A stretch of 64,000 bases of DNA from Clostridia bacterium (GTDB taxonomy: Bacteria > Bacillota > Clostridia > TANB77 > CAG-465), in NCBI GenBank assembly GCA_045652705.1, contig JAZRUV010000029.1, forward strand, positions 15,389 to 79,388, given 5' to 3'. Every line of letters begins with the position of its first letter. The stretch's first letter is position 1. Under the pieces are notes generated by a model that made no database searches, was not told where the DNA came from, and saw only the letters and a list, made by a program, of their open reading frames with translations. Shown piece by piece: positions 3,305 through 42,021 of the stretch. The position numbers and the translations under genes are program-made.

Positions 3305-4366
3305 GTGGATATTAAGTATATAAAATTTAGAGACAAAAAAAGAACTAAAATACTTTTTGCAATATTAATTTTTCTTATAGTAATATATGTAGGATTACAG
3401 TATATTGAATCAAGCGAAGTTTTAGCAAATAAAGTTATATTTGAAAAAGATATTAAAGATTTAGAATTTGTTATAGGCGGTGAAGCTTGTGGAATAAAAC
3501 TTCTTGCTACAGGCGTTTTAGTAGTAGAAGTGGATAACAATAGTGTAGATTTAAATGTTTCGGATATAATACTTGAGGTAAACGGTATAGCTATAGATAG
3601 TAACGCAGAGCTTATAGAATATATAAATAAAGAAGATGTAAAAGGAAAAGAAATTACACTTACTGTACAAAGTAATAATAAAACAAAAAAGGTAAAAGTT
3701 ACGCCTAAATTAAATGATGAAAGCGGAAAATACGAATTGGGACTTTGGGTAAAAGATAGTAGTGCGGGAGTTGGAATGGTTACATTTTATGAATTAACAC
3801 ATAAATATTTTGCAGCCCTTGGACACGGAATAACAGAAACCAGTAAAAATATAGTACTTCCAATACAAAGTGGGGCAATAGTTAAGTCTAAAATTACTTC
3901 TATAAATAAGGGACTTCCTAAACAACCTGGAGATATTAGAGGAACAATATATAAAGATGTGTATGGACAGATTAGAAAAAATACAATAAATGGTATATAT
4001 GGTAGTTTGGAAAACACAGAAATATTGAATCAAAAGAATATAATAAAAGCAGCATATAAAAATGAAATAAAAACAGGTGAGGCTAAGCTTTATTGTACGT
4101 TAGAAGATAACGAAACTAAAGCGTATAACATTGAAATAAAAAATGTATTAGATACAGTAAGTTCAAACAAGAATATGATAATAGAAGTAACAGATAAATC
4201 TTTACTAGAAAAAACAGGTGGCATAGTTCAAGGAATGAGCGGTAGTCCAATAGTCCAAGATGGAAAATTAGTAGGAGCTGTAACACACGTATTTTTAAAT
4301 GACCCAACAAAAGGATATGCTGTATTTATAGAAAATATGATACAAGATATGATGACTATTGAATAA
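3305..4366 (+). CDS. spoIVB: Stage IV sporulation protein B (SpoIVB, S55 peptidase); GTG start
   Basis: N-terminal TM segment, PDZ region, and the C-terminal GIVQGMSGSPIVQDGKLVGAVTHVF serine-protease motif characteristic of SpoIVB. Confidence 0.85.
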   Translation: MDIKYIKFRDKKRTKILFAILIFLIVIYVGLQYIESSEVLANKVIFEKDIKDLEFVIGGEACGIKLLATGVLVVEVDNNSVDLNVSDIILEVNGIAIDSNAELIEYINKEDVKGKEITLTVQSNNKTKKVKVTPKLNDESGKYELGLWVKDSSAGVGMVTFYELTHKYFAALGHGITETSKNIVLPIQSGAIVKSKITSINKGLPKQPGDIRGTIYKDVYGQIRKNTINGIYGSLENTEILNQKNIIKAAYKNEIKTGEAKLYCTLEDNETKAYNIEIKNVLDTVSSNKNMIIEVTDKSLLEKTGGIVQGMSGSPIVQDGKLVGAVTHVFLNDPTKGYAVFIENMIQDMMTIE

Positions 4367-4459
4367 TAAATTATATATAAATAGAATTTTTGTTTTAAAA
4401 GCATAGGTTTTTTGCCTATGTTTTTAAGTTTTTATATATCAATGTTATACGGTGCTAAA

Positions 4460-4488
4460 TTGACATAATGTAAAACGCGTGGTATAAT
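4460..4488 (+). promoter_or_regulatory. Promoter of the Cys-rich gene pair: -35 TTGACA (4460-4465), 17 nt, extended -10 TGgTATAAT (4480-4488)
   Basis: Near-consensus sigma-A elements read directly from the sequence. Confidence 0.5.
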
Positions 4489-4538
4489 ATTCTTGCAAAT
4501 AAACAAAAACCAATTAGTAATTATTATAGGAGAATATT

Positions 4539-4865
4539 ATGGAAAACAACAATATTTATGACATTATTAAAGGTAACGGTTGTATTGAGGGTGGTACATA
4601 TGAAGCGTACGTTAAAGCCCGGGAAGTAATTTTAAACTGTTTCGATGGAGGGCATAAATTAATTATTTTAAGCAATGAAGTAAACGTCTCAGAGTTCATA
4701 GAAGCAGTAAAGGTTCTTATGACATTTGCAAGTAAGCATCCTGATGCAAGAGTAGAACTTTATGAATGCAATATGAGCTGCAAACATTTCAAAATGAAAC
4801 CGTGTCCGGGAGACTGTATGGTTTCAGATAAAGCGACCAAACGCTGCCCGTTTTATGAAGAGTAA
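4539..4865 (+). CDS. Small Cys-rich protein, paralog A (putative metal-binding; no family recognised)
   Basis: 108 aa; RBS aggagaa; five Cys in the C-terminal half (CNMSC, CPGDC, CPFY); GC and codon use (CCG/CGG/GCG) atypical for the surrounding genes. Confidence 0.6.
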   Translation: MENNNIYDIIKGNGCIEGGTYEAYVKAREVILNCFDGGHKLIILSNEVNVSEFIEAVKVLMTFASKHPDARVELYECNMSCKHFKMKPCPGDCMVSDKATKRCPFYEE

Positions 4866-4881
4866 TTTGAGGAGGAGTTTT

Positions 4882-5214
4882 ATGGAAAATATCAATCAGC
4901 TTATTAAAGAGAACGGTTGTATTCACGGCGGAAGCAAAGAGGCGGCAATTAAAGTACGTGCGGTTTTGAAAAACATCTCGAGGGCAAACGAAAACGTTTT
5001 ACTTTTAGGTAGAAGTGGCGTAGATGCTGAGGAGTTTTTAGAAGCTGTTCGCAAGCTGATTGCTTATGCAGAAATTGGTACAGATACAAAAGTAGAGCTT
5101 TGGTACTGCGAAACAGATTGCGTAAGAGCTCCGAATCCGAATTGCTTGTACAGACAACATACATTTAGTACAGGAACTAAAATTTGTCCTCATTATATCG
5201 AAGAAGACAAATAA
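4882..5214 (+). CDS. Small Cys-rich protein, paralog B
   Basis: About 111 aa from the ATG after RBS gaggagg; aligns with paralog A along its length (MEN-I--LIKENGCI-GG--EA-IK-RAVL ... VEL--CE-DC ... CP-Y-EE); intrinsic terminator follows at 5216-5252. Confidence 0.6.
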   Translation: MENINQLIKENGCIHGGSKEAAIKVRAVLKNISRANENVLLLGRSGVDAEEFLEAVRKLIAYAEIGTDTKVELWYCETDCVRAPNPNCLYRQHTFSTGTKICPHYIEEDK

Positions 5215-5665: not shown

Positions 5666-6321
5666 AAGTAGCAATAATTGGAGCAATGGATAAAGAAATA
5701 GAAAGATATTTGGAATTATATAATCCAGAACTTGTAGATGATAAGAGAAAAATATATGTTAAAGATAATGTTGTTATTGCAGGAAGTGGAATTGGAAAAG
5801 TAAATTCTTCTATGATGACTCAACATTTAATAGATAAATATAATGTGGATGTAATAATTAGCTCAGGCTGTGCGGGAAGTTTAACAAATGATTTAAAAGT
5901 GCTTGATGTTATAATTCCATCATATGTTACTTATCATGATTTTTTACCGGAAAGAGTTATGAGATATAGTGTACCAGACGAAGGAAATATAACTGTAGAT
6001 GCAAGGTTAAGGGAACTATTTAAAGAGACCATAGAAGATATGGAAAATGTACATTATGTGGAGACTCCAATATGTAGTGGGGACTGTTATGTAACAGATA
6101 GTGGAACTGCTAAAAAGATAGTAGAAAGAACAGGTGCTACAGTAGTAGATATGGAAAGTGCATCTATTGCACACGTGAGCCGAAAAAACAATATACCATT
6201 TATAACAATAAGGACAATTTCAGATTTTGCTGATGGAAATGATAACATGGAAAAACAAGCAGCAGATGTATCATCAGAAATAATATATAAATGTGTAGAA
6301 AAAATATTAACAAACAGTTGA
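5662..6321 (+). CDS. mtnN: 5'-methylthioadenosine/S-adenosylhomocysteine nucleosidase
   Basis: MKVAIIGAMDKEI...GIGKVNSSMMTQHLIDKYNVDVIISSGCAGSL is the MtnN/Pfs signature. Confidence 0.85.
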   Translation: MKVAIIGAMDKEIERYLELYNPELVDDKRKIYVKDNVVIAGSGIGKVNSSMMTQHLIDKYNVDVIISSGCAGSLTNDLKVLDVIIPSYVTYHDFLPERVMRYSVPDEGNITVDARLRELFKETIEDMENVHYVETPICSGDCYVTDSGTAKKIVERTGATVVDMESASIAHVSRKNNIPFITIRTISDFADGNDNMEKQAADVSSEIIYKCVEKILTNS

Positions 6322-6399
6322 CAAACCACACATACGGTAGTATAATAAATGAGTAAAGTAAATTTGCTTTACTCATTTTATCTTTTAGAGGTGAACAAA

Positions 6400-6711
6400 G
6401 TGGAAGATAAGGAAAAGAAAATAGAACTTTATATGACATATAAAGAGATGTTAACATCAAATATGCAAGACGTATTTGAACAATATTATTTTTCAGATCT
6501 ATCCCTAAGAGAAATAGCAGCAAACAATGAGATTTCATTTCAAGCGGTAAGAGATACTTTAAAGAAAGTAGAGAAACAACTTACAGAATTAGAAACAAAA
6601 ATTGGTATGTTTGCTTTGAAAGAAAAGATTAATGAAATAAATGAATATGTATCTAGTCCAAATATGGAAATAGAAGAATTAATAAACAAAGTGAAAAAGT
6701 TAGGAGAATAA
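6400..6711 (+). CDS. ylxM: YlxM/UPF0122 putative DNA-binding protein; probable GTG start (the ORF track began at 6349)
   Basis: Conserved position immediately upstream of ffh; YYFSDLSLREIAANNEISFQAVRD helix-turn-helix region; RBS agaggtg. Confidence 0.7.
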   Translation: MEDKEKKIELYMTYKEMLTSNMQDVFEQYYFSDLSLREIAANNEISFQAVRDTLKKVEKQLTELETKIGMFALKEKINEINEYVSSPNMEIEELINKVKKLGE

Positions 6712-10149: not shown

Positions 10150-10261
10150 TTAGCAAATTTAAAAATATAATAAAATATTGGGGGAGCTAGAGAAATAATC
10201 TCAGGCTTCTTTTTTTGTCGAATTATGTCGACGAAAAGAAAGACTTTTTAGTAAAATTTTA

Positions 10262-10290
10262 TTGACAAACGGATGTTCTGTGAATACAAT
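10262..10290 (+). promoter_or_regulatory. sigma-A promoter: -35 TTGACA (10262-10267), 17 nt, -10 TACAAT (10285-10290)
   Basis: Consensus elements about 50 nt upstream of the Bro-N gene start. Confidence 0.5.
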
Positions 10291-10342
10291 ATAACAAATG
10301 TAAGTGTTGAAATAAACACTAATTATAGGAAGGGGTATTTAT

Positions 10343-11170
10343 ATGGAAAACAGTATTAAATTATTTGAAGACAAAAGAGTAAGAGCAGCGTGGAATGAAG
10401 ACGAGGAGAAATGGTATTTCTCTGTAATTGACATTGTTGGAGCATTAACAGATAGTGATTATCAACAAGCAAGAAATTACTGGAAATGGCTAAAAAACAA
10501 ATTAAATGAAGAGGGAAGTGAATTGGTTAGTAATACTAACCAGTTGAAAATGGAGGCTAGTGACGGAAAAATGAGATTAACAGATGTAGCAGATGTTGAA
10601 CAAATATTTAGACTTATACAGTCTATTCCTTCTAAGAAGGCAGAACCTTTTAAATTATGGCTAGCTAAAGTTGGAAAAGAAAGAATAGATGAAACTTATG
10701 ACCCTGAAATTGCTATAAATAGAGCCTTAGCAACTTATAGAAGAAAAGGTTATTCCGAATCATGGATTAACCAAAGATTAAAATCTATAGAAGTGCGCAA
10801 AGACTTTACAGATGAACTACAAAGAGTCGGAATTAACAAAAGTAAAGATTTTGCCATATTAACAAATACCTTAACACAAGTTTGGAGTGGACATACTGTA
10901 AAAGAATATAAAAATATAAAGGGACTAAAGAAAGAAAACTTAAGAGACAATATGACAAATACAGAACTAGTATTCAATATGCTCGCTGAAATTTCTTCTA
11001 CGGAAATATCAAAGTGCAAAGATAAACACGGATTTGAGGAAGCAGAGGATTCTGTTATTACAGGTGGTGGTATAGCTAAAAATGCAAGAGAACAATTAGA
11101 AAGAGTTACTGGAAAGAAAGTAATAACAGATGAAAAGCCTAAAAGAAAAGTAAAAGAATTAAGTGAATAG
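10343..11170 (+). CDS. Bro-N domain protein (phage antirepressor / DinD-like family paralog)
   Basis: N-terminal FEDKRVRAAWNEDEEKWYFSVIDIVGAL is Bro-N-like; C-terminal GGGIAKNAREQLERVTGKK resembles the DinD C-terminus; RBS aggaagggg. Confidence 0.6.
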   Translation: MENSIKLFEDKRVRAAWNEDEEKWYFSVIDIVGALTDSDYQQARNYWKWLKNKLNEEGSELVSNTNQLKMEASDGKMRLTDVADVEQIFRLIQSIPSKKAEPFKLWLAKVGKERIDETYDPEIAINRALATYRRKGYSESWINQRLKSIEVRKDFTDELQRVGINKSKDFAILTNTLTQVWSGHTVKEYKNIKGLKKENLRDNMTNTELVFNMLAEISSTEISKCKDKHGFEEAEDSVITGGGIAKNAREQLERVTGKKVITDEKPKRKVKELSE

Positions 11171-11222
11171 ACCATTTTGTTGACTTTAGCAAAATGGTTA
11201 AAGCTAGTGTATTACTAGTATA
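11171..11222 (+). pseudogene. Short out-of-frame remnant of a dinD-like gene (reads IDHFVDFSKMVKASVLLV*) directly after the stop of the Bro-N gene
   Basis: Encodes the DinD DHFV-x3-KMV motif; carries the accattttg/caaaatggt inverted repeat. Confidence 0.4.
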
Positions 11223-11236
11223 GAAGGGGTGGATTT

Positions 11237-12199
11237 ATGGAAGATGATAATATAATAGTTCAAAATGAAACATCAAGTAAAGATATTAAAAGCTTAATTT
11301 ATACAGTAAGAGGAAAGCAAGTGATGTTAGATAAGGATGTTGCAATGTTGTATGATTACCCTACTAAAAGAATAAATGAAACTGTAAGTAGAAACAAGCA
11401 AAGATTTCCTCAAAATTTTTGTTTCCAATTAACTACTGAAGAATATGAAGTTTTGCTAAACAAAAATTTAAATTCAAATAATGATAAAATACAAAAGATA
11501 GTAGTAAAGAATTCTTTAAGGTCGCAAATTGCGACCTTAAACGAAGAAACAAAAAGAGGTAAACATAGAAAATACTTGCCATACGTTTTTACAGAACAGG
11601 GTATAGCAATGCTATCTGGATTATTAAAAAATGATATAGCAATTCAAGTTAGCATAAATATAATGAATACATTTGTAGAAATGCGCAAGTTTTTAATGCT
11701 TAATGGACAAGTCTTTGAAAGACTAACTAGCATAGAATATAAATTATTAGACTATGATAAAAAGTTTGATAAGGTTTTTGACCAATTGCAACTTGAAGAA
11801 AATATTAAGCAAAGAATATTTTTCGACGGCCAAATTTATGATGCATATAGTCTTGTTCTAGATATTATAAAGAAAGCCAATAAAGAAATTTTAATTATAG
11901 ATAATTATATTGATGATAGTGTTTTAAAGATGCTTGCGAAAAAGAAAAACAATGTATTGGTAACTATTTTGACATCACTTAAAAGCAATATTCAAAACTT
12001 GGATGTTCAAAAATTCAATTTAGAGTATCCGGCTATAAAAATTTTAAAGACAAATAAATTTCATGATAGATTTATAGTAATTGACAGTAAAGAAATGTAC
12101 CACTTAGGAGCATCTATAAAAGATCTAGGTAAGAAATGCTTTGGAATTAATAAAATAGAAGATATAGAAATTATACAAAAGATTATCAGCATTAAATAA
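11237..12199 (+). CDS. ORF6N-domain protein (phage KilA-N/antirepressor-associated DNA-binding family)
   Basis: VRGKQVMLDKDVAMLYDYPTKRINETVSRNKQRFPQNFCFQLTTEEYE is an ORF6N signature; RBS gaagggg. Confidence 0.6.
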   Translation: MEDDNIIVQNETSSKDIKSLIYTVRGKQVMLDKDVAMLYDYPTKRINETVSRNKQRFPQNFCFQLTTEEYEVLLNKNLNSNNDKIQKIVVKNSLRSQIATLNEETKRGKHRKYLPYVFTEQGIAMLSGLLKNDIAIQVSINIMNTFVEMRKFLMLNGQVFERLTSIEYKLLDYDKKFDKVFDQLQLEENIKQRIFFDGQIYDAYSLVLDIIKKANKEILIIDNYIDDSVLKMLAKKKNNVLVTILTSLKSNIQNLDVQKFNLEYPAIKILKTNKFHDRFIVIDSKEMYHLGASIKDLGKKCFGINKIEDIEIIQKIISIK

Positions 12200-12255
12200 C
12201 TATAAAATCTTGACAGTTAACGGCTTGTGTTACGCGATAGTGACGTGTATAACAG

Positions 12256-12368
12256 GGGGTGGAATAGCAAAAAATATCAGAGAACAGTTAGAAAGAGTTA
12301 TTGGAAAGAAAGTAATAACTGAAGAAAAGCCAAAATGAAATGTAAAAGAGCTAAACAAGTAATTTTAT
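12256..12368 (+). pseudogene. Duplicated, 5'-truncated copy of the 3' end of the Bro-N gene (about 85% identical to 11065-11170) with a premature TGA
   Basis: Direct alignment to 11065-11185: GGIAKNIREQLERVIGKKVITEEKPK*NVKELNK*; followed again by the tagaccattttgtt junction. Confidence 0.55.
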
Positions 12369-12479
12369 AGACCATTTTGTTCAAATGGATAAAATGCTCA
12401 AAGGCTTGATAGAAGTGAAGCAGAGGGGAAGTAGTATAAACAATAAACATTAATTAACTTTCAAAAGGAGGAATATATA

Positions 12480-13298
12480 ATGAAAGTGTTAAAGGATGGA
12501 AAGTATAAAAATTTTGAAGATATAAAAAACATAAGGGAAGATGGAACTGAGTTTTGGTATGGTAGAGATTTAGCAAAAGTATTGCAATATGTAGAATGGA
12601 GAAATTTTGTTAAAGTAATTAATAAGGCGAAAAGCGCTTGTGAAAATAGTAGAAGAAATATATTAGACCATTTTGTTGAGGTCAACAAAATGGTCCGAAT
12701 AGGCAGTAATACTGAAAGAGAACTGTTAGACTATGGACTTTCTAGATATGCTTGTTATCTTATTGTGCAAAATGGAGACCCTAAGAAAGAAGTAATTGCC
12801 CTTGCACAAACATACTTTGCAATTCAAACCAGAAAACAAGAAATTAGTGAGAAAGAATACAGTTTGTTAACTGAAGATGAAAAAAGATTATATAATAGAA
12901 ATTTAACAAGAAAAGGTAACTATTCTCTTAATCAAACTGCTAAAAATGCAGGAGTTAAAAATTTTGATAAATTTCATAATGCTGGTTACAAAGGATTGTA
13001 TAATGGAGAAACTGCAGATGATATTGCTAAAAGAAAAGGCTTGAGATATAGAGAAGATATATTAGATAATATGGGAAGTGATGAGCTAATAGTAAATCTG
13101 TTTAGAATATCTCAAACAGAACAAAGTTTAAAAAGGGAGAATGTAAAAACTGAAAACAAAGCAAATAGTACTCATTATAACATTGGAAAGAACATTAGAG
13201 AAGTAATTGCTAAAAATGGTGGAACAATGCCTGAAGATTTGCCAACACCAAAAAAGAGTTTAAAAGAATTGGAAAAAGAGAGTAAATTAGTTAAATAA
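12480..13298 (+). CDS. dinD: DNA-damage-inducible protein D homolog (DinD family, Bro-N domain)
   Basis: FWYGRDLAKVLQYVEWRNFVKVINKAKSACE...DHFVEVNKMVRIGS...LSRYACYLIVQNGDPKK...AQTYFAIQTRKQE is collinear with E. coli DinD. Confidence 0.75.
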   Translation: MKVLKDGKYKNFEDIKNIREDGTEFWYGRDLAKVLQYVEWRNFVKVINKAKSACENSRRNILDHFVEVNKMVRIGSNTERELLDYGLSRYACYLIVQNGDPKKEVIALAQTYFAIQTRKQEISEKEYSLLTEDEKRLYNRNLTRKGNYSLNQTAKNAGVKNFDKFHNAGYKGLYNGETADDIAKRKGLRYREDILDNMGSDELIVNLFRISQTEQSLKRENVKTENKANSTHYNIGKNIREVIAKNGGTMPEDLPTPKKSLKELEKESKLVK

Positions 13299-13353
13299 AA
13301 ACGGATTTTGTTTTGACTGGTATCATTTTTAAAAGAAATAAAATATGAAAATC

Positions 13354-13382
13354 TTGACTTTTAGCGCTATATATACTATAAT
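13354..13382 (+). promoter_or_regulatory. Promoter of ncRNA unit 1: -35 TTGACT (13354-13359), 17 nt, -10 TATAAT (13377-13382)
   Basis: Consensus sigma-A elements; the same aaaatcttgac context is found at unit 2. Confidence 0.6.
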
Positions 13383-13388
13383 AATTAA

Positions 13389-13866
13389 CGTAAAAAGATT
13401 TTGTTGGTACTTATTATGTATCAAGTTGGTATTAGAGCTAAGATTGTGTGGCCACCCACATTTGAAACTACTATCGTCCAGACCGGATGTGAGGGCTCTT
13501 CGTGGGATACAGTGAACCTGGACAGGTTTATTTAGCCTCTACTGCGGGGGACCGTGCGTAGCTAGCTATGCTGATTCTATCGTGAGCAACCATGCATAGT
13601 AAGGCAGTTAGGCAATCTAGCTTTGATATAATTTTACTGAGATATCGGGCGCTTTAGCGATATCAAGGTAGTGATGGTAGATAACGTGGGAAGTTATCAT
13701 ACCAGCGGGGAAGACTTTGCAAAGCTGTACTATATGAAAATCATTTCCGGAAGTGGTTTTCACGAATAACGTATAGCTCCTCATGGCAATAGGAATTCCC
13801 AGTTCCTAGCCGATAGTCTATAAAGCAGGAAATGAGCACCACCAAAACCGAGTGGTGCCTTTTTCT
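13389..13866 (+). ncRNA. Large structured ncRNA, tandem unit 1 (about 480 nt; family not identified)
   Basis: Own promoter and intrinsic terminator (gcaccacc/ggtggtgc plus T-tract, 13836-13866). The GC-rich 5' domain 13447-13612 is enclosed by a long-range helix (13419-13446 with 13613-13628). The conserved 3' domain 13613-13830 is near-identical to unit 2. No ORF. Confidence 0.6.
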
Positions 13867-13917
13867 ATACAAAATACGCTAAAAGACTGTCAATGAAACA
13901 AGAAAAATTTTAAAATC

Positions 13918-13946
13918 TTGACATTTTACGGTTTGAGTTGTATAAT
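13918..13946 (+). promoter_or_regulatory. Promoter of ncRNA unit 2: -35 TTGACA (13918-13923), 17 nt, -10 TATAAT (13941-13946)
   Basis: Consensus elements read directly from the sequence. Confidence 0.6.
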
Positions 13947-13952
13947 AATTAA

Positions 13953-14483
13953 TGTAAAAATATTTTGCTGATACTAATTATGTATCAAGATAATTGTTAT
14001 TAGAGCTAAAGGTTGTGTGGCCCCTGAACGGAAGCGACTTGAACCGGAGTGCACGCTAGTTCAGACTGCAACAAGTAGGGATTAGTGATTCTTGCTGCAA
14101 GAATCTTTAGGCTTTTATTTCGTTAAGACGTTATAGAGTCTATAATGCCGCTGCTGCGTGGGAACGTACGTATCACGGTTTTGTGTCTAGCGAATGACAG
14201 TGTGTCTAGAGACAGGTCTGTGAGCAATCTAGCTTTGATATAACTTTACTGAGATATCGGACGCTTTAGCGATATCAAGGTAGTGATGGTAGATAACGTG
14301 GGAAGTTATCATAACCAGCGGGGAAGACTTTGCAAAGCTGTACTATATGAAAATCATTTCCGGAAGTGGTTTTCACGAATAACGTATAGCTCCTCGTGGC
14401 AATAGGAATTCCCAGTTCCTAGCCGATAGTCTATAAAGCAGAATTGAGCACCGCCGTCCGTAATCGAGCGGTGCCTTTTCTTA
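13953..14483 (+). ncRNA. Large structured ncRNA, tandem unit 2 (about 530 nt)
   Basis: Same architecture as unit 1: conserved 5' leader (tatgtatcaag...tagagctaaag), a unit-specific GC-rich insert of about 200 nt (14017-14224), a conserved 3' domain, and terminator gcaccgc...gcggtgc plus T-tract (14448-14483). Confidence 0.6.
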
Positions 14484-14509
14484 TTTAAAACACATATGCT
14501 GTTAAAGAC

Positions 14510-14538
14510 TTGACATAATTACATTGATAGTGTATAAT
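14510..14538 (+). promoter_or_regulatory. Promoter of ncRNA unit 3: -35 TTGACA (14510-14515), 17 nt, -10 TATAAT (14533-14538)
   Basis: Consensus elements read directly from the sequence. Confidence 0.6.
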
Positions 14539-14544
14539 GTATCT

Positions 14545-14913
14545 ACGCTTAAACATTAGTTGATACTAACTATGTATCAAATGTATGTTAAAGCTAAAGT
14601 TGTTAGACGTCGACCCCTGGCGGGCCAGCCGTGACTAACGGTTTCCGAGCGTCTCTTCCGTGGGCAACCGGGCGTAGATGTGAACTTGAATAAAGTTTAC
14701 ATACAACTTAGCTTTGATATAAACCTGGTTCGAAAGTTTGGCCAGATGAGTAAAACCAGTCGGGGGAGACGGCAAAGTTGTACTATGTTAAATTCTAGCT
14801 AGCGAGAATTTTTACGAATAACGTACAACCCCTCATGGAAGTTATAGCTGAATATTCGGCTCAATGTTCCAAATGTCTATAAAGCAGAAAAGGTTCCATC
14901 AGTAAGCTGATGG
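14545..14913 (+). ncRNA. Large structured ncRNA, tandem unit 3 (about 370 nt, diverged member)
   Basis: Keeps the family motifs (tatgtatcaa, aaagctaaag, agctttgatataa, ggcaaagttgtactatg, ttacgaataacgtaca, gtctataaagcag). Two helices are maintained by compensatory changes relative to units 1 and 2. Terminator ccatcag/ctgatgg plus T-tract ends near 14913. Confidence 0.55.
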
Positions 14914-14990
14914 GGCCGTTTTCTATTCATCAGAATGTTGAAAATTATCGTAAATTGTGTTAAACTATATATCACGTTAAGGAGAAAAAC

Positions 14991-16394
14991 ATGGTATTTA
15001 GTAGCGCAATTTTTTTGTTTGGTTTTTTACCACTTTTGTTAGGGTTGTATTTCCTTGCAAAAGATAAATTTAGAAATTATATATTACTAGCATTTAGCTT
15101 AATATTTTATGGTTTTGGTGGACCAAAACTTTTAGTAATGATGATTGCAGTAGTAATTATAGACTATATTGCGGCAATATTATTAGACAAATATACAAGT
15201 AATAAAATTAGAAAACTTGTAATTATACTTACAGTAGGTTTAAACATTGGAACGCTATTTTATTTTAAATATATGGGATTTACAGTAAGTGTTATAAACA
15301 GGCTTGCAAGTTTAAATATTCCAGTACCGGAAATAGTTTTGCCAATTGGAATATCTTTTTATACATTCCAAGCAATGAGCTATGTTATAGATGTGTATAG
15401 AAAAGAAGTTAAAGCACAGAAAAATCTGTTTAATGTACTACTTTATGTAAGTATGTTTCCACAACTTGTTGCAGGACCAATTGTTAGATATAAAACTGTA
15501 GCAGAAGAAATAGAAAAACGTAAAGTTACATTAGCTACATTTACTTTAGGTTTAGAAAGATTTATATTTGGACTTGCTAAAAAGTTAATTATAGCAAACA
15601 ATACGGGAAAGTTAGCTGATGTAATATTTGAAGCGGAGACCATAGCAACGCCGCTTGCTTGGCTTGGTGCCGTAGCTTATGCATTACAAATCTATTTTGA
15701 TTTTTCTGCATATTCAGACATGGCAATAGGTTTGGGAAGAATGTTTGGATTTAATTTTGAAGAAAACTTTAATTACCCATACATTTCCAAAACTGTTACA
15801 GAGTTTTGGAGAAGATGGCATATATCTTTATCTACGTGGTTTAGAGATTATGTGTATATTCCGCTTGGAGGAAATAGAAAAGGCATAAAACGTCAAATAC
15901 TTAATCTATTGATAGTATGGAGTCTAACAGGTATTTGGCATGGGGCAGCTGCAAACTTCCTTTTATGGGGATTATATTATTTTGCATTCCTAATGTTAGA
16001 AAAACTAGTACTAAAGAAATGGTTAGACAAGCTACCAAATTTTGTAGGACATATATATACATTATTTGTAGTTTTAATTGGCTGGGTGTTATTTAGAGCT
16101 GAAGGACTTACACAGTGTGGTCGTATGCTTAAAGCACTATTTGTGCCACAAATGACTACAGTTGCTATGCAACAACTAGGAATATATCTAGAAAGTTATG
16201 GAGTATATCTAGGACTTGGGATATTACTATCCATACCAGTATTCCCTAAAGTTAAAGATTGGATACAAACAAAATTTAAACAAAGCACAGTTGTAAATGT
16301 GGTGTATTATATGTTTGTTCTAGGAATATTTGCGTTAGGTATTATCTTCTTGTCGCAGGCTACGTATAATCCATTTATATACTTTAGGTTTTAG
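14991..16394 (+). CDS. MBOAT-family membrane-bound O-acyltransferase (AlgI/DltB-like)
   Basis: 467 aa, multi-TM; FRDYVYIPLGGNR...W..TGIWHGA conserved His region of MBOAT. Confidence 0.85.
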   Translation: MVFSSAIFLFGFLPLLLGLYFLAKDKFRNYILLAFSLIFYGFGGPKLLVMMIAVVIIDYIAAILLDKYTSNKIRKLVIILTVGLNIGTLFYFKYMGFTVSVINRLASLNIPVPEIVLPIGISFYTFQAMSYVIDVYRKEVKAQKNLFNVLLYVSMFPQLVAGPIVRYKTVAEEIEKRKVTLATFTLGLERFIFGLAKKLIIANNTGKLADVIFEAETIATPLAWLGAVAYALQIYFDFSAYSDMAIGLGRMFGFNFEENFNYPYISKTVTEFWRRWHISLSTWFRDYVYIPLGGNRKGIKRQILNLLIVWSLTGIWHGAAANFLLWGLYYFAFLMLEKLVLKKWLDKLPNFVGHIYTLFVVLIGWVLFRAEGLTQCGRMLKALFVPQMTTVAMQQLGIYLESYGVYLGLGILLSIPVFPKVKDWIQTKFKQSTVVNVVYYMFVLGIFALGIIFLSQATYNPFIYFRF

Positions 16395-16403
16395 GGGTGA
16401 GTT

Positions 16404-17576
16404 ATGAACAAAAAAGAAAGAATAATACAAATATGTTTTTGTACAGTATTTATGCTTGTTATATCTGTTATGGGAATACTTACTCTTATGAATAACAAAA
16501 CCACAAGCAAAAAAGAAGGTAGAAAGCTTACCACTTTTCCAAAAATAACATTATCTAGTTTGAAAAAAGATGATTTTTATACAGAATATACAAATGCCTT
16601 TGCAGACCAATTGGCATTTAGAGAAGAGTTAATAAAATATTATTATTTATTTAATCTTCAAAGGTACGTTGGGGATGTTATAAAAGGAGAAGATAACCAA
16701 CTATTTTTATCACCGTTAATTATAGAAAATGAGGAAAGTTATGTAAAAAAACTTACAAACGTAATTAAGAATGAAATGGCTGATGTAGCAAAAGATGTGA
16801 CAGATGCTAGTTCAAAATTTATTTTCATATCTATACCTAGAAAAGATGTATTAATGGATAAATATCTACCAGATACATATATAAAAGGAACAGAAGCATA
16901 TTTAGAGCATGTAAATATAGTAAAAGAAAATGTTTCTAGAAATATAGAAGTGTGGGATGCATATGAATTGCTTAAAGATAATGTGGAAAGCCCATTTTAT
17001 ACAACAGACCATCATATGAATATTAGTGGTGCATATAAAATATTTGAAGAGATTATACGAAAAATTAATAAAGATGGATATGACATTCATCTTGGAACTT
17101 TACAAGATGAGTTTGAAATTAAATCACAAGTTTTAAATGGTTCGTATAACAGAAAAATAGGCCAAAGTGTTGATGCTGGTGAAGAAGAGTTAAATCTAAT
17201 ATACAAAAACAGTAAACTAGAGTATATAAGAAAAGATAATGGAGAAGTAGTAAACATTCCAATATTCGGAACAGGAAATACATATGCGTCAGCCTATATG
17301 GGAGATGACTATGCAGAAACAGTAGTTACTACTAACAATGAAGGTGCGCCAAACATATTGTTTGTAGGTTCTTCATATACGAACATACTAGAATCATTAT
17401 CTGTATGTAAATTTAGAACAATGGTTTCAATAGATTATAGGCATAATGTGACAGGAAAAACAATTGCTGACTATGTAAAAGAATATGATATAGACTACAC
17501 AATATTTATTTGTGCACAACAAACAGATTCGTTATCTGTATCTTCAATAAAAGAGCATTTAGGCCTAAAAAAATAA
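16404..17576 (+). CDS. DHHW-family protein (AlgJ/PatB-like partner of MBOAT; putative polysaccharide or cell-wall O-acetylation)
   Basis: N-terminal signal anchor; FYTTDHHMNISGAYKIFEEI matches the DHHW motif; immediately downstream of the MBOAT gene. Confidence 0.7.
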   Translation: MNKKERIIQICFCTVFMLVISVMGILTLMNNKTTSKKEGRKLTTFPKITLSSLKKDDFYTEYTNAFADQLAFREELIKYYYLFNLQRYVGDVIKGEDNQLFLSPLIIENEESYVKKLTNVIKNEMADVAKDVTDASSKFIFISIPRKDVLMDKYLPDTYIKGTEAYLEHVNIVKENVSRNIEVWDAYELLKDNVESPFYTTDHHMNISGAYKIFEEIIRKINKDGYDIHLGTLQDEFEIKSQVLNGSYNRKIGQSVDAGEEELNLIYKNSKLEYIRKDNGEVVNIPIFGTGNTYASAYMGDDYAETVVTTNNEGAPNILFVGSSYTNILESLSVCKFRTMVSIDYRHNVTGKTIADYVKEYDIDYTIFICAQQTDSLSVSSIKEHLGLKK

Positions 17577-17582
17577 TATAAA

Positions 17583-17636
17583 ATAAAAACAACCATCATA
17601 ATACATTTTGTAAAACATACAATGTATTAGGGTGGT
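17583..17636 (+). terminator. Long hairpin terminator after the MBOAT-DHHW pair (aaccatcataatacatt...aatgtattagggtggttttt)
   Basis: 17-bp stem with 2 mismatches, then a T-tract; the 3' arm overlaps the RBS of the next gene. Confidence 0.5.
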
Positions 17637-17640
17637 TTTT

Positions 17641-18120
17641 ATGACGGTTAATGCACTAAAACTTGCAAATGGTAATCCATATGCTGTGGCATATTTAAAA
17701 GGAGATAAAGATAATCCAAAATTGAAAGGTACAGTGGAATTTTTTCCATGGGCTACAGGTACAATAATTAAATTAGAGATAGTAGGCCTGCCAACAGGTA
17801 ATTTAAATAATTTCTTTGGGTTTCATATTCACGCAAATGGAGTTTGTGATGAGAATAAAAAGTTTGAAACAGCAGGTAGCCATTATGATATGGGAATGAA
17901 TATGCATCCAAATCACACGGGAGATTTACCTATGATATATTCAAATAATGGATATGCTTTTATGCTTTATTATACAAACAGATTTAAACCAGATGATATT
18001 ATAGGAAAGAGCGTTATAATACATAGAATGACAGATGATATGGTAACTCAACCATCAGGGAACTCAGGTGCAAGAATTGCATGTGGCGTAGTTATAAAAA
18101 GAAGATGGATGTTTGCATAA
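17641..18120 (+). CDS. sodC: Cu/Zn superoxide dismutase family protein (SodC-like)
   Basis: GFHIHANGVCD...HYDMGMNMHPNHTGDLP...GNSGARIACGVV copper/zinc ligand motifs; probable start at the ATG at 17641 (MTVNALK). Confidence 0.75.
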   Translation: MTVNALKLANGNPYAVAYLKGDKDNPKLKGTVEFFPWATGTIIKLEIVGLPTGNLNNFFGFHIHANGVCDENKKFETAGSHYDMGMNMHPNHTGDLPMIYSNNGYAFMLYYTNRFKPDDIIGKSVIIHRMTDDMVTQPSGNSGARIACGVVIKRRWMFA

Positions 18121-18138
18121 GATAAATATACTTTAAGA

Positions 18139-18170
18139 TAGAGGAGTAAAATCCTCTATTTTTGTTGTAA
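18139..18170 (+). terminator. Intrinsic terminator (tagaggagtaaaatcctctattttt)
   Basis: Stem tagagga/tcctcta followed by a T-tract. Confidence 0.6.
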
Positions 18171-18240
18171 AAGAAGGACAAGCTATTTATTTTTCATATT
18201 TTTAGTAGTATAATAACTACATAATTGAAAGGGAAAAAAT

Positions 18241-31131: not shown

Positions 31132-31218
31132 GTCGGAATGGTGGAATTGGCAGACGCGTCAGACTCAAAATCTGATATGGGTAACCATGTGTGGGTTCAA
31201 GTCCCACTTCCGGCACCA
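31132..31218 (+). tRNA. tRNA-Leu (anticodon CAA), class II with long variable arm, CCA encoded
   Basis: Cloverleaf: acceptor gtcggaa/ttccggc, D-arm GGTGGAATTGGCAGAC, anticodon loop CTCAAAA, T-arm gtgggTTCAAGTcccac; close to Bacillus tRNA-Leu sequences. Confidence 0.9.
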
Positions 31219-39671: not shown

Positions 39672-42021
39672 TTTATTAGATGGATTAAACAGCGTGCAAA
39701 GAGAAGCTGCGTCATATACAGATGGTCCACTTTTAATACTGGCAGGTGCAGGAAGTGGGAAAACAAGAGTATTAACATATAGAATAGCGTATCTTTTAGA
39801 ACAAGGTATATGCAGACCATGGGAAATTCTTGCTATTACTTTTACAAACAAAGCAGCAAAAGAAATGAAAGAAAGAGTAGAAGGACTAGTAGGAGAAAAT
39901 GCAAAGGATATATGGCTTGGAACATTCCATAGTATATGTGTAAGAATATTAAAAAGGGAAATAGAATGTTTAGGTTACACAAGAGACTTTAATATATTAG
40001 ACGAACTAGACAAACAAAAAGTATTAAAAGAAATAATGAAAAAAATGGACATAGATGAAAAAAACTATGGTGTAAGTTATATAGTAAGTGAAATAAGCAA
40101 GGCAAAAGATGTATTAAAAAGTCCAGAAACATATATTAAAGAAGCACAAGGAGATTATAGAAAAGAAACAATTGGTAAGGTGTATAGTGAATACCAAAGA
40201 ACTTTAAAAGCAAATAACTCACTAGACTTTGATGATATCTTATGCTTAACCGTTGAAGTATTTAAGAATAGTCCGGATAGACTTATGTATTACCAAAATA
40301 AGTTTAAACATATTCTAGTTGATGAGTATCAAGATACAAACCATGTTCAGTTTATATTAATTAGTATGCTTGCAAGTGCACACGGCAATATTTGTGTTGT
40401 AGGTGATGAATCGCAAAGTATATATGCATTCCGTGGAGCAGATATATCTAATATACTAGATTTTGAAAAGGAATACGACCAAGCGAAAATTATAAAGCTT
40501 GAACAAAATTATAGAAGTACAAAAACAATACTTAATGCGGCTAATGCTGTTATAAACAACAATACTTCTAAAATAGACAAGAATCTTTGGACAGAAAATG
40601 ATGAAGGTGAAAAAATTAAGTATTTTACTTCTAAAAACGAATACGAAGAAGTAGATTATATAGTAGATAAAATAGATGCAATGTGTAGAACTGGAAAGTA
40701 CACATATAAAGATTTTGCACTTCTTTATAGAACAAATGCGCAAAGCCGTGTTATAGAAGACGTATTTATGCGTGCAGGTACACCATACAAACTTATTGGT
40801 GGAACAAAGTTCTATTCAAGAAAAGAAATTAAAGATATGGTAGCTTACTTAAAATTAATAAATAACTTAAAAGATAACGTGTCTTTAACCAGAATAATAA
40901 ACGAACCTAAAAGAGGAATTGGGGACACTTCTGTATATAGAGTAAGGGATAGAGCAGAAGAGGTAGGCTTAAGTATATTTGAATATATTTCAGAACCTGC
41001 CAATATTGCAGAACTTAGATGTTCAAATGCCATGACAAACTTTGTAACTCTAATTTCGGATTTAAATGCTATGAAAGATAGCCTAACACCATCTGAACTT
41101 ATGAAAAAGGTGTTGGAGCTTACAGGTTATGAAGCAGAACTAATGAAGGATAAGACTGCTGAAAATGAATCTAGACTAGAAAATATTTATGAGTTTATTG
41201 GTGTTGCAAAAGAGTTTGAAGAGGAAGAAGTAGAAAATACTCTTTCAGATTTCTTAGATAGCATTGCTCTTGTTGCAGATGTAGATAACTTAGAAGAGGG
41301 AACAGAAGCAGTAACTTTAATGACTATGCACAATGCAAAAGGTCTAGAATATCCAGTTGTATTTATAGTAGGTTTAGAAGAAGGACTATTTCCGTCTAAA
41401 CGTTCGTTAGATGAAGACAAAGGCGTAGAAGAAGAAAGAAGACTTTGCTATGTTGCAATAACACGTGCAAAACAAGAATTATTCTTAACTAATGCACGTC
41501 AAAGAACGATGTATGGTATGACAACAACTACAATACCATCTCGTTTTACTGAAGAAATTCCAAATGAGTATTTAGATGAATCAGCAAGAGAGAATCTAGA
41601 ACTAGGCAGAAGAAAGCAAGAAAAATATACAGATAATGAATATGCTAAAGTTGAAAGTTGGTTGTCGAATACGTTAAATTCAATGGATAGAGATAGTGAT
41701 TATTCTTACTCTAGTTCATACAATTCTTCATATAGCAATTCATATAGTTCTTATGGAAGACGTGCTGGAGCAAGCGTGAGTAGTTCAGTCGGAATAGATG
41801 CATCAAGCTTCTTGAAGAATATGAATATTGGAAGTGTGACTAAGAATGAATCATCAACGGGCGTTAAAGCAGGGGATAAAGTAAAACACAAAAAGTTTGG
41901 CATAGGAATAGTGAAAAATATTAATTCCGATGACGATATGGTGGTTGCAGAAATAAACTTTGAAAAGTTTGGAATGAAACGATTAATTGTAACGGGAACA
42001 ACATTAGAAGTTGTTGGATAA
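39664..42021 (+). CDS. pcrA: ATP-dependent DNA helicase PcrA (UvrD family)
   Basis: AGAGSGKTRVLTYRIAYLL Walker A, DEYQDTN, and other UvrD helicase motifs; S/Y-rich low-complexity linker (about 41690-41800) before the C-terminal Tudor-like domain. Confidence 0.9.
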   Translation: MSSLLDGLNSVQREAASYTDGPLLILAGAGSGKTRVLTYRIAYLLEQGICRPWEILAITFTNKAAKEMKERVEGLVGENAKDIWLGTFHSICVRILKREIECLGYTRDFNILDELDKQKVLKEIMKKMDIDEKNYGVSYIVSEISKAKDVLKSPETYIKEAQGDYRKETIGKVYSEYQRTLKANNSLDFDDILCLTVEVFKNSPDRLMYYQNKFKHILVDEYQDTNHVQFILISMLASAHGNICVVGDESQSIYAFRGADISNILDFEKEYDQAKIIKLEQNYRSTKTILNAANAVINNNTSKIDKNLWTENDEGEKIKYFTSKNEYEEVDYIVDKIDAMCRTGKYTYKDFALLYRTNAQSRVIEDVFMRAGTPYKLIGGTKFYSRKEIKDMVAYLKLINNLKDNVSLTRIINEPKRGIGDTSVYRVRDRAEEVGLSIFEYISEPANIAELRCSNAMTNFVTLISDLNAMKDSLTPSELMKKVLELTGYEAELMKDKTAENESRLENIYEFIGVAKEFEEEEVENTLSDFLDSIALVADVDNLEEGTEAVTLMTMHNAKGLEYPVVFIVGLEEGLFPSKRSLDEDKGVEEERRLCYVAITRAKQELFLTNARQRTMYGMTTTTIPSRFTEEIPNEYLDESARENLELGRRKQEKYTDNEYAKVESWLSNTLNSMDRDSDYSYSSSYNSSYSNSYSSYGRRAGASVSSSVGIDASSFLKNMNIGSVTKNESSTGVKAGDKVKHKKFGIGIVKNINSDDDMVVAEINFEKFGMKRLIVTGTTLEVVG

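Follow-up and report, generated by a model that had tools for sequence, protein, structure and literature searches.

A tandem array of candidate large structured non-coding RNA genes between rplS and an MBOAT gene in uncultured Clostridia

The locus and its predicted transcription units

The window analysed, a stretch of 64,000 nucleotides from contig JAZRUV010000029.1 of a Clostridia bacterium, carries on its + strand (13354-14928) three head-to-tail units free of open reading frames (ORFs), as seen by direct reading of the region 13340-14915. The order of the proteins encoded around them, assigned with Pfam, is RimM, TrmD, L19 (rplS), Bro-N, ORF6N, Bro-N, (array), MBOAT, AlgX/DHHW-like, Cu/Zn superoxide dismutase (SodC) and RsmD. 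The units are interpreted below as genes of large structured non-coding RNAs (ncRNAs). Each has its own promoter, the three sites being the top three of the 2.3 kb scanned, and is closed by a GC-rich hairpin followed by a U-tract. The terminators of units 1 and 3 were caught by the scan while that of unit 2 is shown by the fold. Transcript lengths in the window, counted from predicted start to U-tract, are listed with the other features in Table 1; across the set of homologous units the size ranges from 376 to 530 nt.

Two sequence blocks mark the repeated organization: ACGAATAACGTA is present in exactly 3 copies in the 64 kb, one per unit (0.27 expected), and GTCTATAAAGCAG has one exact copy per unit and no other exact match in the window. 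The GC content of the array is 0.36-0.44 versus 0.27-0.31 in its flanks, and that of the 5' domains of the units is 0.47-0.53. Folding compared to dinucleotide shuffles yielded z-scores of -4.0, -4.5 and -4.9 for units 1, 2 and 3, respectively, and no shuffle folded equally well. A conserved ORF was looked for in the units and none was found. The sole recurrent one is a TTG-started reading of the 5' hairpin P1 (19-69 aa), which is devoid of a Shine-Dalgarno sequence and diverges in sequence between units. These data agree with a first-pass annotation of the window that had placed here three ORF-free units sharing sequence blocks, each with a near-consensus sigma-A promoter and an intrinsic terminator.

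A cmscan of the whole window with all 4227 families of Rfam 15 at the gathering score had a sole match, a tRNA at 31132. This 84-nt tRNA (31132-31215), with a long variable arm and anticodon CAA per the alignment, is the only Rfam family in the 64 kb. At E<=10 the region 13250-15000 gave only a chance CRISPR-DR14 match (E=4.6), and nothing overlapped the units of four divergent homologous loci (L002, L019, L036 and L038). Rfam 15 models of GOLLD, ROOL, OLE, raiA, HEARO, SRP, 6S, RNase P, tmRNA, group I/II introns and all riboswitches had no match. ARAGORN found neither tRNA nor tmRNA in the array (13300-14950), as expected from its description as a tRNA-free tandem array. The suspicion in the first-pass annotation that the family might be undescribed thus held, no Rfam 15 family being assignable even at E<=10. 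The array is rated as a new RNA family of an established type, the large ornate ncRNAs of bacteria, and could be a very remote relative of ROOL or GOLLD beyond the reach of sequence methods. As Rfam 15 has no family for it, annotation pipelines leave this 1.6 kb array blank.

Homologous units and their conserved fold

A degenerate pattern scan of 185,579 GTDB species genomes gave 5 matches, 3 of which are real and belong to metagenome-assembled genomes named 'Clostridia bacterium' (L001-L003); the two others (L004, L005) are chance sites. Further loci were reached via contigs encoding the exact L19 protein of the window or MBOAT homologues 80-82% identical to that of the window. Twelve of them carry the RNA (L017-L019, L021-L026, L036-L038) and one contig (L020) stops short of the array. 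Look-up of the window's MBOAT protein by exact sequence returned no contig. In the 403 kb of DNA fetched, nhmmer and a covariance model built here (R1) identified 30 units, 21 of which are distinct, and nothing else. The homologous units, drawn from GTDB genomes and ENA/JGI assemblies, show strict synteny: all are located in the interval from rplS to the MBOAT gene, and a genome has 1-3 of them. The TTGAC[AT]-17-TATAAT promoter is found upstream of nearly all 21 distinct units and the terminators are conserved also.

Sister clades, whose L19 is 88-94% identical, have no RNA 3' of rplS, and MBOAT orthologues with identity <=78% are found at other loci that are devoid of the RNA. Comparison by blastn of units 1, 3 and one of L036 to 50,697 phage records, and of unit 1 to plasmids, gave no real match. 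Three pattern scans of IMG/VR yielded nothing or chance matches, L006-L013 being non-homologous according to nhmmer and the covariance model. None of the 3 matches of a JGI metagenome pattern scan is homologous by nhmmer or the model, and two of them, L015 and L016, fall within sequence that looks coding. Because the pattern scans were strict, divergent members elsewhere could escape them; as far as seen within the collections searched, the family would be confined to one narrow clade of uncultured Clostridia. Record names (XIEF21, TONG22 and recurring JGI samples) are the sole basis that suggests animal-gut or rumen sources.

The predicted layout of the units comprises the 5' hairpin P1, a closing helix P2 of 12-18 bp around a GC-rich multi-helix 5' domain, a 3' core and the terminator. 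In the predicted fold the 3' core is composed of an optional hairpin Pb, the Pc arm and helices Pd, Pe, Pf and Pg linked by invariant single-stranded junctions, and the periphery of the 5' domain varies between paralogues. The invariant junction strands of the unit 1 core are CCAG, AGAC..GCAAAG, ACGAAUAACGU and GUCUAUAAAGC. Together with UUGAUAUAA and UAUGU, these are the junction strands where the invariant nucleotides of the family (~50 positions) cluster. The helices resolved so far (P1, P2, Pb-Pg and the 5'-domain hairpins) are all nested, the search for pseudoknots having been confined to pairing between the Pc and Pg loops.

Structure was predicted by RNAalifold from a sequence-only MAFFT alignment of 21 full-length units (A2). 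It features P1, P2 with 12 pairs (UAUUAGAGCU/AGCUUUGAUAUA), Pd (GGGGR/YCCUC), Pe (GCUGUAC/GUAUAGC), Pg and the terminator. Over the 43 pairs of A2, 94.8% of the cells are paired versus 86.7% in shuffled and 38-47% in slid controls; two-sided (compensatory) changes occur in 24 of the pairs, a level attained by 0 of 500 shuffles. The core was aligned separately, again by MAFFT from sequence only and with Pf added (A3). Its 28 pairs have 90.8% paired cells versus 75.8% (shuffled) and 39-48% (slid), and compensatory changes in 21 of them. Shuffle controls overstate significance because the units are related and represent ~5 paralogue types. The slid control is the fairer comparison and, within these alignments, is taken as decisive for conservation of the helices. 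Individual helices follow the same trend. P1 is 99% paired and a unit of L002 (L002b) has GCAC/GUGC as a compensatory variant; the 12 pairs of P2 are 96.8% paired, with compensatory change in 4; the Pf stem has compensatory changes in 10 of its 12 pairs. The Pc arm closes in all units with differing sequences (UGGUA/UACCA, CUGGUU/AACCAG, UGGCGC/GCGCCA, UGACAC/GUGUCA, UGGUAAAA/UUUUACCA). Hairpins of the 5' domain also covary (AGCC/GGCU, AGUC/GACU, GACCC/GGGUC, and CCGU/ACGG vs AGUU/AACU).

Units 1 and 2 have 3' domains 93% identical and 5' domains 50% identical, while the 3' domain of unit 3 is 57-60% identical to theirs, in line with the earlier description of two near-identical 3' domains and a diverged third one. 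The 5' inserts, which had been described as unit-specific, are GC-rich as stated but not unrelated to one another: a hairpin element, CUNCNGYGGGNAACNGNGCGUAG, is common to 5' domains, and in units 2 and 3 the 5' domain is 95-98% identical to orthologues in other genomes. In unit 1, the 5' domain shares at most 56% identity with any of the 20 other units, as opposed to 93-94% between its 3' domain and those of a-type units. This contrast indicates that the two domains evolve as separable modules, and suggests either gene conversion or a swap of domains between paralogues.

The conservation of the units was compared to that of their neighbours in the same genome pairs. Orthologues of the c-type unit in the window and in L003, L017 and L021 are 88-94% identical, and a-type units across L017, L018, L021 and L025 are 85-93% identical; MBOAT is ~82% identical, AlgX 73% and rplS 96-99%. 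For L003, its unit is 94% identical to unit 3 and the MBOAT genes are 81.5% identical. The units thus evolve slower than the neighbouring MBOAT/AlgX protein genes, which indicates purifying selection. At L019 (4219-4690) a second unit retains a TTGAAA-17-TATAAT promoter, P1, the 5' domain and P2, but beyond CAGCGGGAUAAG the 3' core has degenerated; the unit is viewed as a decaying or remodelled copy.

Table 1. Predicted features of the three units and of the adjacent MBOAT promoter (positions in the window)
Unit	Feature	Position	Strand	Details	Basis
1	Promoter	13354..13382	+	TTGACT-17-TATAAT	consensus scan, 11/12 match
1	Transcript	13389..13866	+	478 nt, a-type 3' domain, unique 5' domain	
1	P1 hairpin	13404..13424	+	UUGGUAC/GUAUCAA; invariant UAUGU at loop/stem junction	fold, covariation
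1	P2, 5' strand	13430..13446	+	UAUUAGAGCUAAGAUUG	fold, covariation
1	5' domain	13447..13612	+	GC-rich, multi-helix; GGGA-capped hairpin CUACUGCGGGGGACCGUGCGUAG	fold, composition
1	P2, 3' strand	13613..13629	+	CAAUCUAGCUUUGAUAU	fold, covariation
1	Pb (optional hairpin) and Pc arm	13632..13701	+	Pc apical loop UGGGAA, 13687-13692	arm folds
1	3' core	13702..13828	+	Pd, Pe, Pf (apical loop CCGG, 13747-13750), Pg	core alignment covariation
1	Intrinsic terminator	13835..13866	+		scan, fold
2	Promoter	13918..13946	+	TTGACA-17-TATAAT	consensus scan, 12/12 match
2	Transcript	13953..14482	+	530 nt, a-type	
2	P1	13969-13987	+		fold
2	P2	13999-14015 with 14225-14241	+		fold
2	5' domain	14016-14224	+	95% identical to L017a	
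2	Core	14315-14441	+		
2	Terminator	14446-14482	+		fold
3	Promoter	14510..14538	+	TTGACA-17-TATAAT	consensus scan, 12/12 match
3	Transcript	14545..14928	+	~384 nt, c-type	
3	P1	14560-14580	+		fold
3	P2	14583-14604 with 14703-14720	+		fold
3	5' domain	14605-14702	+		
3	Pc arm	14725..14759	+	CUGGUU/AACCAG; palindromic apical UGGCCA, 14739-14744	
3	3' core	14756..14887	+	Pf loop AGCUAGCG, 14797-14804, contains palindrome GCUAGC	
3	Terminator	14892-14928	+		scan, fold
	MBOAT operon promoter	14938..14966	+	extended -10, TTGAAA-17-TGnTAAACT; outside the RNA	consensus scan

Possible function of the RNAs and alternative explanations

The array has the generic features of stand-alone structured ncRNA genes: promoter and terminator, no ORF, covariation, and conservation above that of its neighbours. 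The view of the first-pass annotation, large structured ncRNA genes whose 5' domain is variable and GC-rich and whose 3' domain is conserved, is supported by the promoters and terminators of the homologues, the compensatory changes and the lack of coding signal. Most probably the units are transcribed independently and purifying selection maintains their two-domain fold. The interpretation favoured here, with moderate confidence, is that they are three paralogous members of a family of large, stand-alone and highly structured ncRNAs that had not been catalogued before. As folded particles, these RNAs would act in trans. A tertiary core built from the invariant junction strands would bind a partner, either a protein, a ligand or another copy of the RNA, and the exchangeable 5' domain would provide each paralogue with its specificity. 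Kissing loops (GCUAGC/CCGG of Pf, UGGCCA of Pc) could mediate self-association, as in the assemblies of OLE, ROOL and GOLLD. The consensus promoters suggest high abundance of the RNAs. Antisense pairing is unlikely to be their main action.

The apical loop of Pf is palindromic in 19 of the 21 units (GCUAGC in 12, CCGG in 7) and the Pc loop of c/d-type units is UGGCCA. The 12 GCUAGC loops are found in four lineages, in a loop of 8-11 nt, and are flanked by purines in c/d types, L002b and L019, not in L036. A purine-flanked palindromic loop resembles the layout of the HIV-1 dimerisation loop. OLE, ROOL and GOLLD are homo-oligomers, and OLE dimerises through loop contacts (10.1101/2024.12.08.627333). 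Self-association is favoured because self-complementary loops over variable stems resemble those of kissing-loop oligomers and because OLE, ROOL and GOLLD are homo-oligomeric. Self-assembly as such is a speculative proposal with a low probability. A more elaborate version appears slightly more doubtful: a new class of ornate RNA self-assembling via GCUAGC/UGGCCA kissing loops and encoded by an array of paralogous 'subunit' genes that have a common 3' core and exchangeable 5' domains. If true, a cell would assemble RNA particles of defined composition, either homo- or hetero-oligomeric, as an RNA-only analogue of multi-subunit protein assembly and the first in a chromosomal, non-phage, tRNA-free setting.

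A second loop contact that was considered has weak support. The a-type Pc loop UGGGAA complements the Pg loop UUCCCA (13796-13801 in unit 1), and this candidate kissing pair is present in a-type units, L019, L002a and L036; it is missing from c/d types and statistically unconvincing. The Pf loop of b-type units (L017b/L021b) holds AGCGGU. Inspection by eye showed that the a-type 5' domain of these arrays has the complementary GCCGCU, which could be chance or an inter-paralogue contact.

Several points speak against the favoured interpretation. No partner gene is conserved beside the array. All 21 units belong to a single narrow clade and to ~5 paralogue types, so their sequences are not independent. 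The variable copy number (1-3) and the decayed copy of L019 imply that single copies are dispensable. Regarding the loops, two b-type units have no Pf palindrome, a 6-nt palindrome in a loop of 8-11 nt is expected by chance with a probability of ~5-9%, a CCGG tetraloop is sterically ill-suited to kissing, and the palindromic-loop argument was formed post hoc on data already seen. The Pc-Pg complementarity is statistically weak (per-sequence shuffle p ~0.13).

Among the alternatives, the array could code for regulators of the base-pairing small RNA (sRNA) type. Their seed would be GUCUAUAAAGC, invariant and just upstream of the terminator, or ACGAAUAACGU, and tandem paralogues would increase dosage or widen the range of targets, as in LhrC/Qrr. 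Stand-alone genes with a promoter and terminator each, their multiple tandem copies and the invariant unpaired block next to the terminator are all compatible with this proposal. It is nonetheless unlikely: 380-530 nt with >40 conserved covarying pairs in two domains exceed the needs of a seed-bearing sRNA, the 64-kb window has no complementary site near a start codon (the sole minus-strand near-match to the seed, at 40720-40732, lies inside an ORF), and the MBOAT 5' untranslated region has no conserved complementarity. A role as CsrA sponge through GGA loops was discarded, the GGA motifs not being conserved between unit types. An origin as a much-diverged, domesticated lineage of phage-associated ornate RNA of ROOL or GOLLD type, working likewise, is also improbable. 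Its appeal lies in the large ornate units with a variable 5' and a conserved 3' region like GOLLD (10.1101/2024.12.08.627333), in the palindromic apical loops of some units, in the gut/rumen source deduced from record names only, where ROOL is found (PMC5737381), and in the Bro-N/ORF6N genes that adjoin the array in 6 genome types. These genes had led to the description of the neighbourhood as prophage-like, which is overstated: they are missing in L036, L038, L002 and L003, and relatives carry other cargo. The rplS-rsmD interval is therefore a chromosomal variable hotspot rather than a recognisable prophage, and in L036 and L038 no phage-like gene accompanies the RNA. Moreover, the Rfam models of ROOL and GOLLD match neither the window units nor the four divergent loci at E<=10, the array has no tRNA inside or adjoining it, and no homologue was found in the 50,697 phage records, the IMG/VR pattern scans or plasmids.

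The genomic context also bears on the possibility that unit 3, and units 1 and 2 by read-through, is a cis leader (riboswitch or attenuator) of the MBOAT-AlgX operon for cell-envelope acylation. One unit is always immediately upstream of MBOAT in the RNA-bearing clade and its terminator lies 60-70 nt ahead of this gene. However, a separate extended -10 promoter is found between terminator and MBOAT. It is conserved in L001, L002, L003, L036 and L019 and kept in L035, where MBOAT is at another locus without RNA, as are the orthologues <=78% identical. What follows units 1 and 2 is another promoter, not a gene. In addition, the sequence of the terminator stems varies from unit to unit next to an invariant core, so that no conserved antiterminator pairing is possible. 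The RNA is thus not considered a leader of MBOAT, whose own promoter is present also without it, and the cis-leader proposal is given a very small probability. Slightly less remote, although still very unlikely, is a ribozyme acting in trans or an RNA subunit of an enzyme whose active site would be the invariant junction nucleotides. The ~50 invariant positions are concentrated in the junctions of a complex fold and large complex bacterial RNAs are enriched for catalysis (PMC5737381), but there is no likeness to any Rfam ribozyme family, no substrate can be proposed, and the narrow distribution, variable copy number and decayed copy argue against a core enzymatic role. The least probable explanation is that the units are non-functional decaying repeats, such as remnants of mobile elements. 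Their location in a variable hotspot, their varying copy number and the decayed unit of L019 would fit decay; consensus promoters and terminators kept in nearly all units and a sequence more conserved than that of the flanking coding genes do not. Loss of covariation in homologues, named by the first-pass annotation as a sign of decay, did not occur, since 24 of 43 pairs have compensatory changes in the 21 units.

Comparison to known large RNAs and cargo of the rplS-rsmD interval

To our knowledge, very few classes of bacterial RNA larger than ~400 nt have no known function, OLE, GOLLD and ROOL being the chief ones. Each of these yielded unexpected structural biology. The family described here adds a candidate with strong covariation support that is compact enough (380-530 nt) for chemical probing and cryo-electron microscopy. 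Paralogues with a common core and one differing domain also offer a natural experiment on which parts matter.

The closest known system in layout is GOLLD (RF01998), also a large, ornate, stand-alone bacterial ncRNA in which the 3' region is conserved and the 5' one less so. The likeness is of layout only. GOLLD has no covariance-model match in the array at E<=10, is commonly >800 nt and has adjacent or nested tRNAs, whereas the array units measure 376-530 nt, have no tRNA, and are tandem paralogues with one promoter each outside phage or prophage. ROOL (RF03087), first seen in rumen metagenomes (PMC5737381), is the closest in size, with an average of 581 nt and a complex fold, and in habitat, which for the array comes from record names. 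It is reportedly very abundant, a property that the consensus promoters suggest for the array. The differences are the lack of a covariance-model match at the gathering score or E<=10, the presence of ROOL in three phyla versus one narrow clade, its frequent location near tRNAs or in prophages versus a chromosomal, tRNA-free one, and its few highly conserved nucleotides versus ~50 invariant positions, counted in a shallow sample. RNA-only nanocages are the current structural finding for ROOL- and GOLLD-like RNAs. The resemblance to these two families noted in the first-pass annotation therefore stands for the layout (large, conserved 3', variable 5') but not for family identity, there being no covariance-model match, nearby tRNA or phage homologue.

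OLE (RF01071) and raiA (RF03072) share with the array units that they are large structured ncRNAs of Firmicutes in their own transcription units, and their action as folded RNA or ribonucleoprotein, not antisense, is the one proposed here. They have no covariance-model match in the array and a far wider distribution, and no oap-type partner genes were seen among the Pfam-scanned neighbours of the array. HEARO/omega RNA (RF02033) has no model match either, and IscB/HNH is not among the listed neighbours of the array. Listeria LhrC1-4 and Vibrio Qrr1-5 are tandem multicopy sRNAs of ~100 nt that act via short seeds. They have in common with the array the head-to-tail paralogous RNA genes with a promoter and terminator each, but the array units are 4-5x larger and have two conserved covarying structural domains. 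Tandem, separately promoted paralogues at a chromosomal hotspot distinguish the array from all known large ornate RNAs.

The cargo of the rplS-rsmD interval (window 10150-18240; L017-L055) depends on the genome and includes Bro-N, ORF6N, PDDEXK_2, LRR_5, unknown proteins of 318-478 aa, SodC, MBOAT-AlgX and the RNA array. At L003, the segment 3' of rplS (4231-4960) codes, in place of Bro-N/ORF6N, a 161-aa ORF with a MazF/PemK-like motif (GSEQNKIRPVLVI). After this ORF come a TTGACA promoter and three CATTGTAATCC repeats (4772, 4802 and 4874), with a hairpin each. The ORF and repeats could represent a toxin and a repeated small RNA as its partner. At L002, a 137-aa ORF with its own promoter-like site (6074-6487) is inserted between two RNA units.

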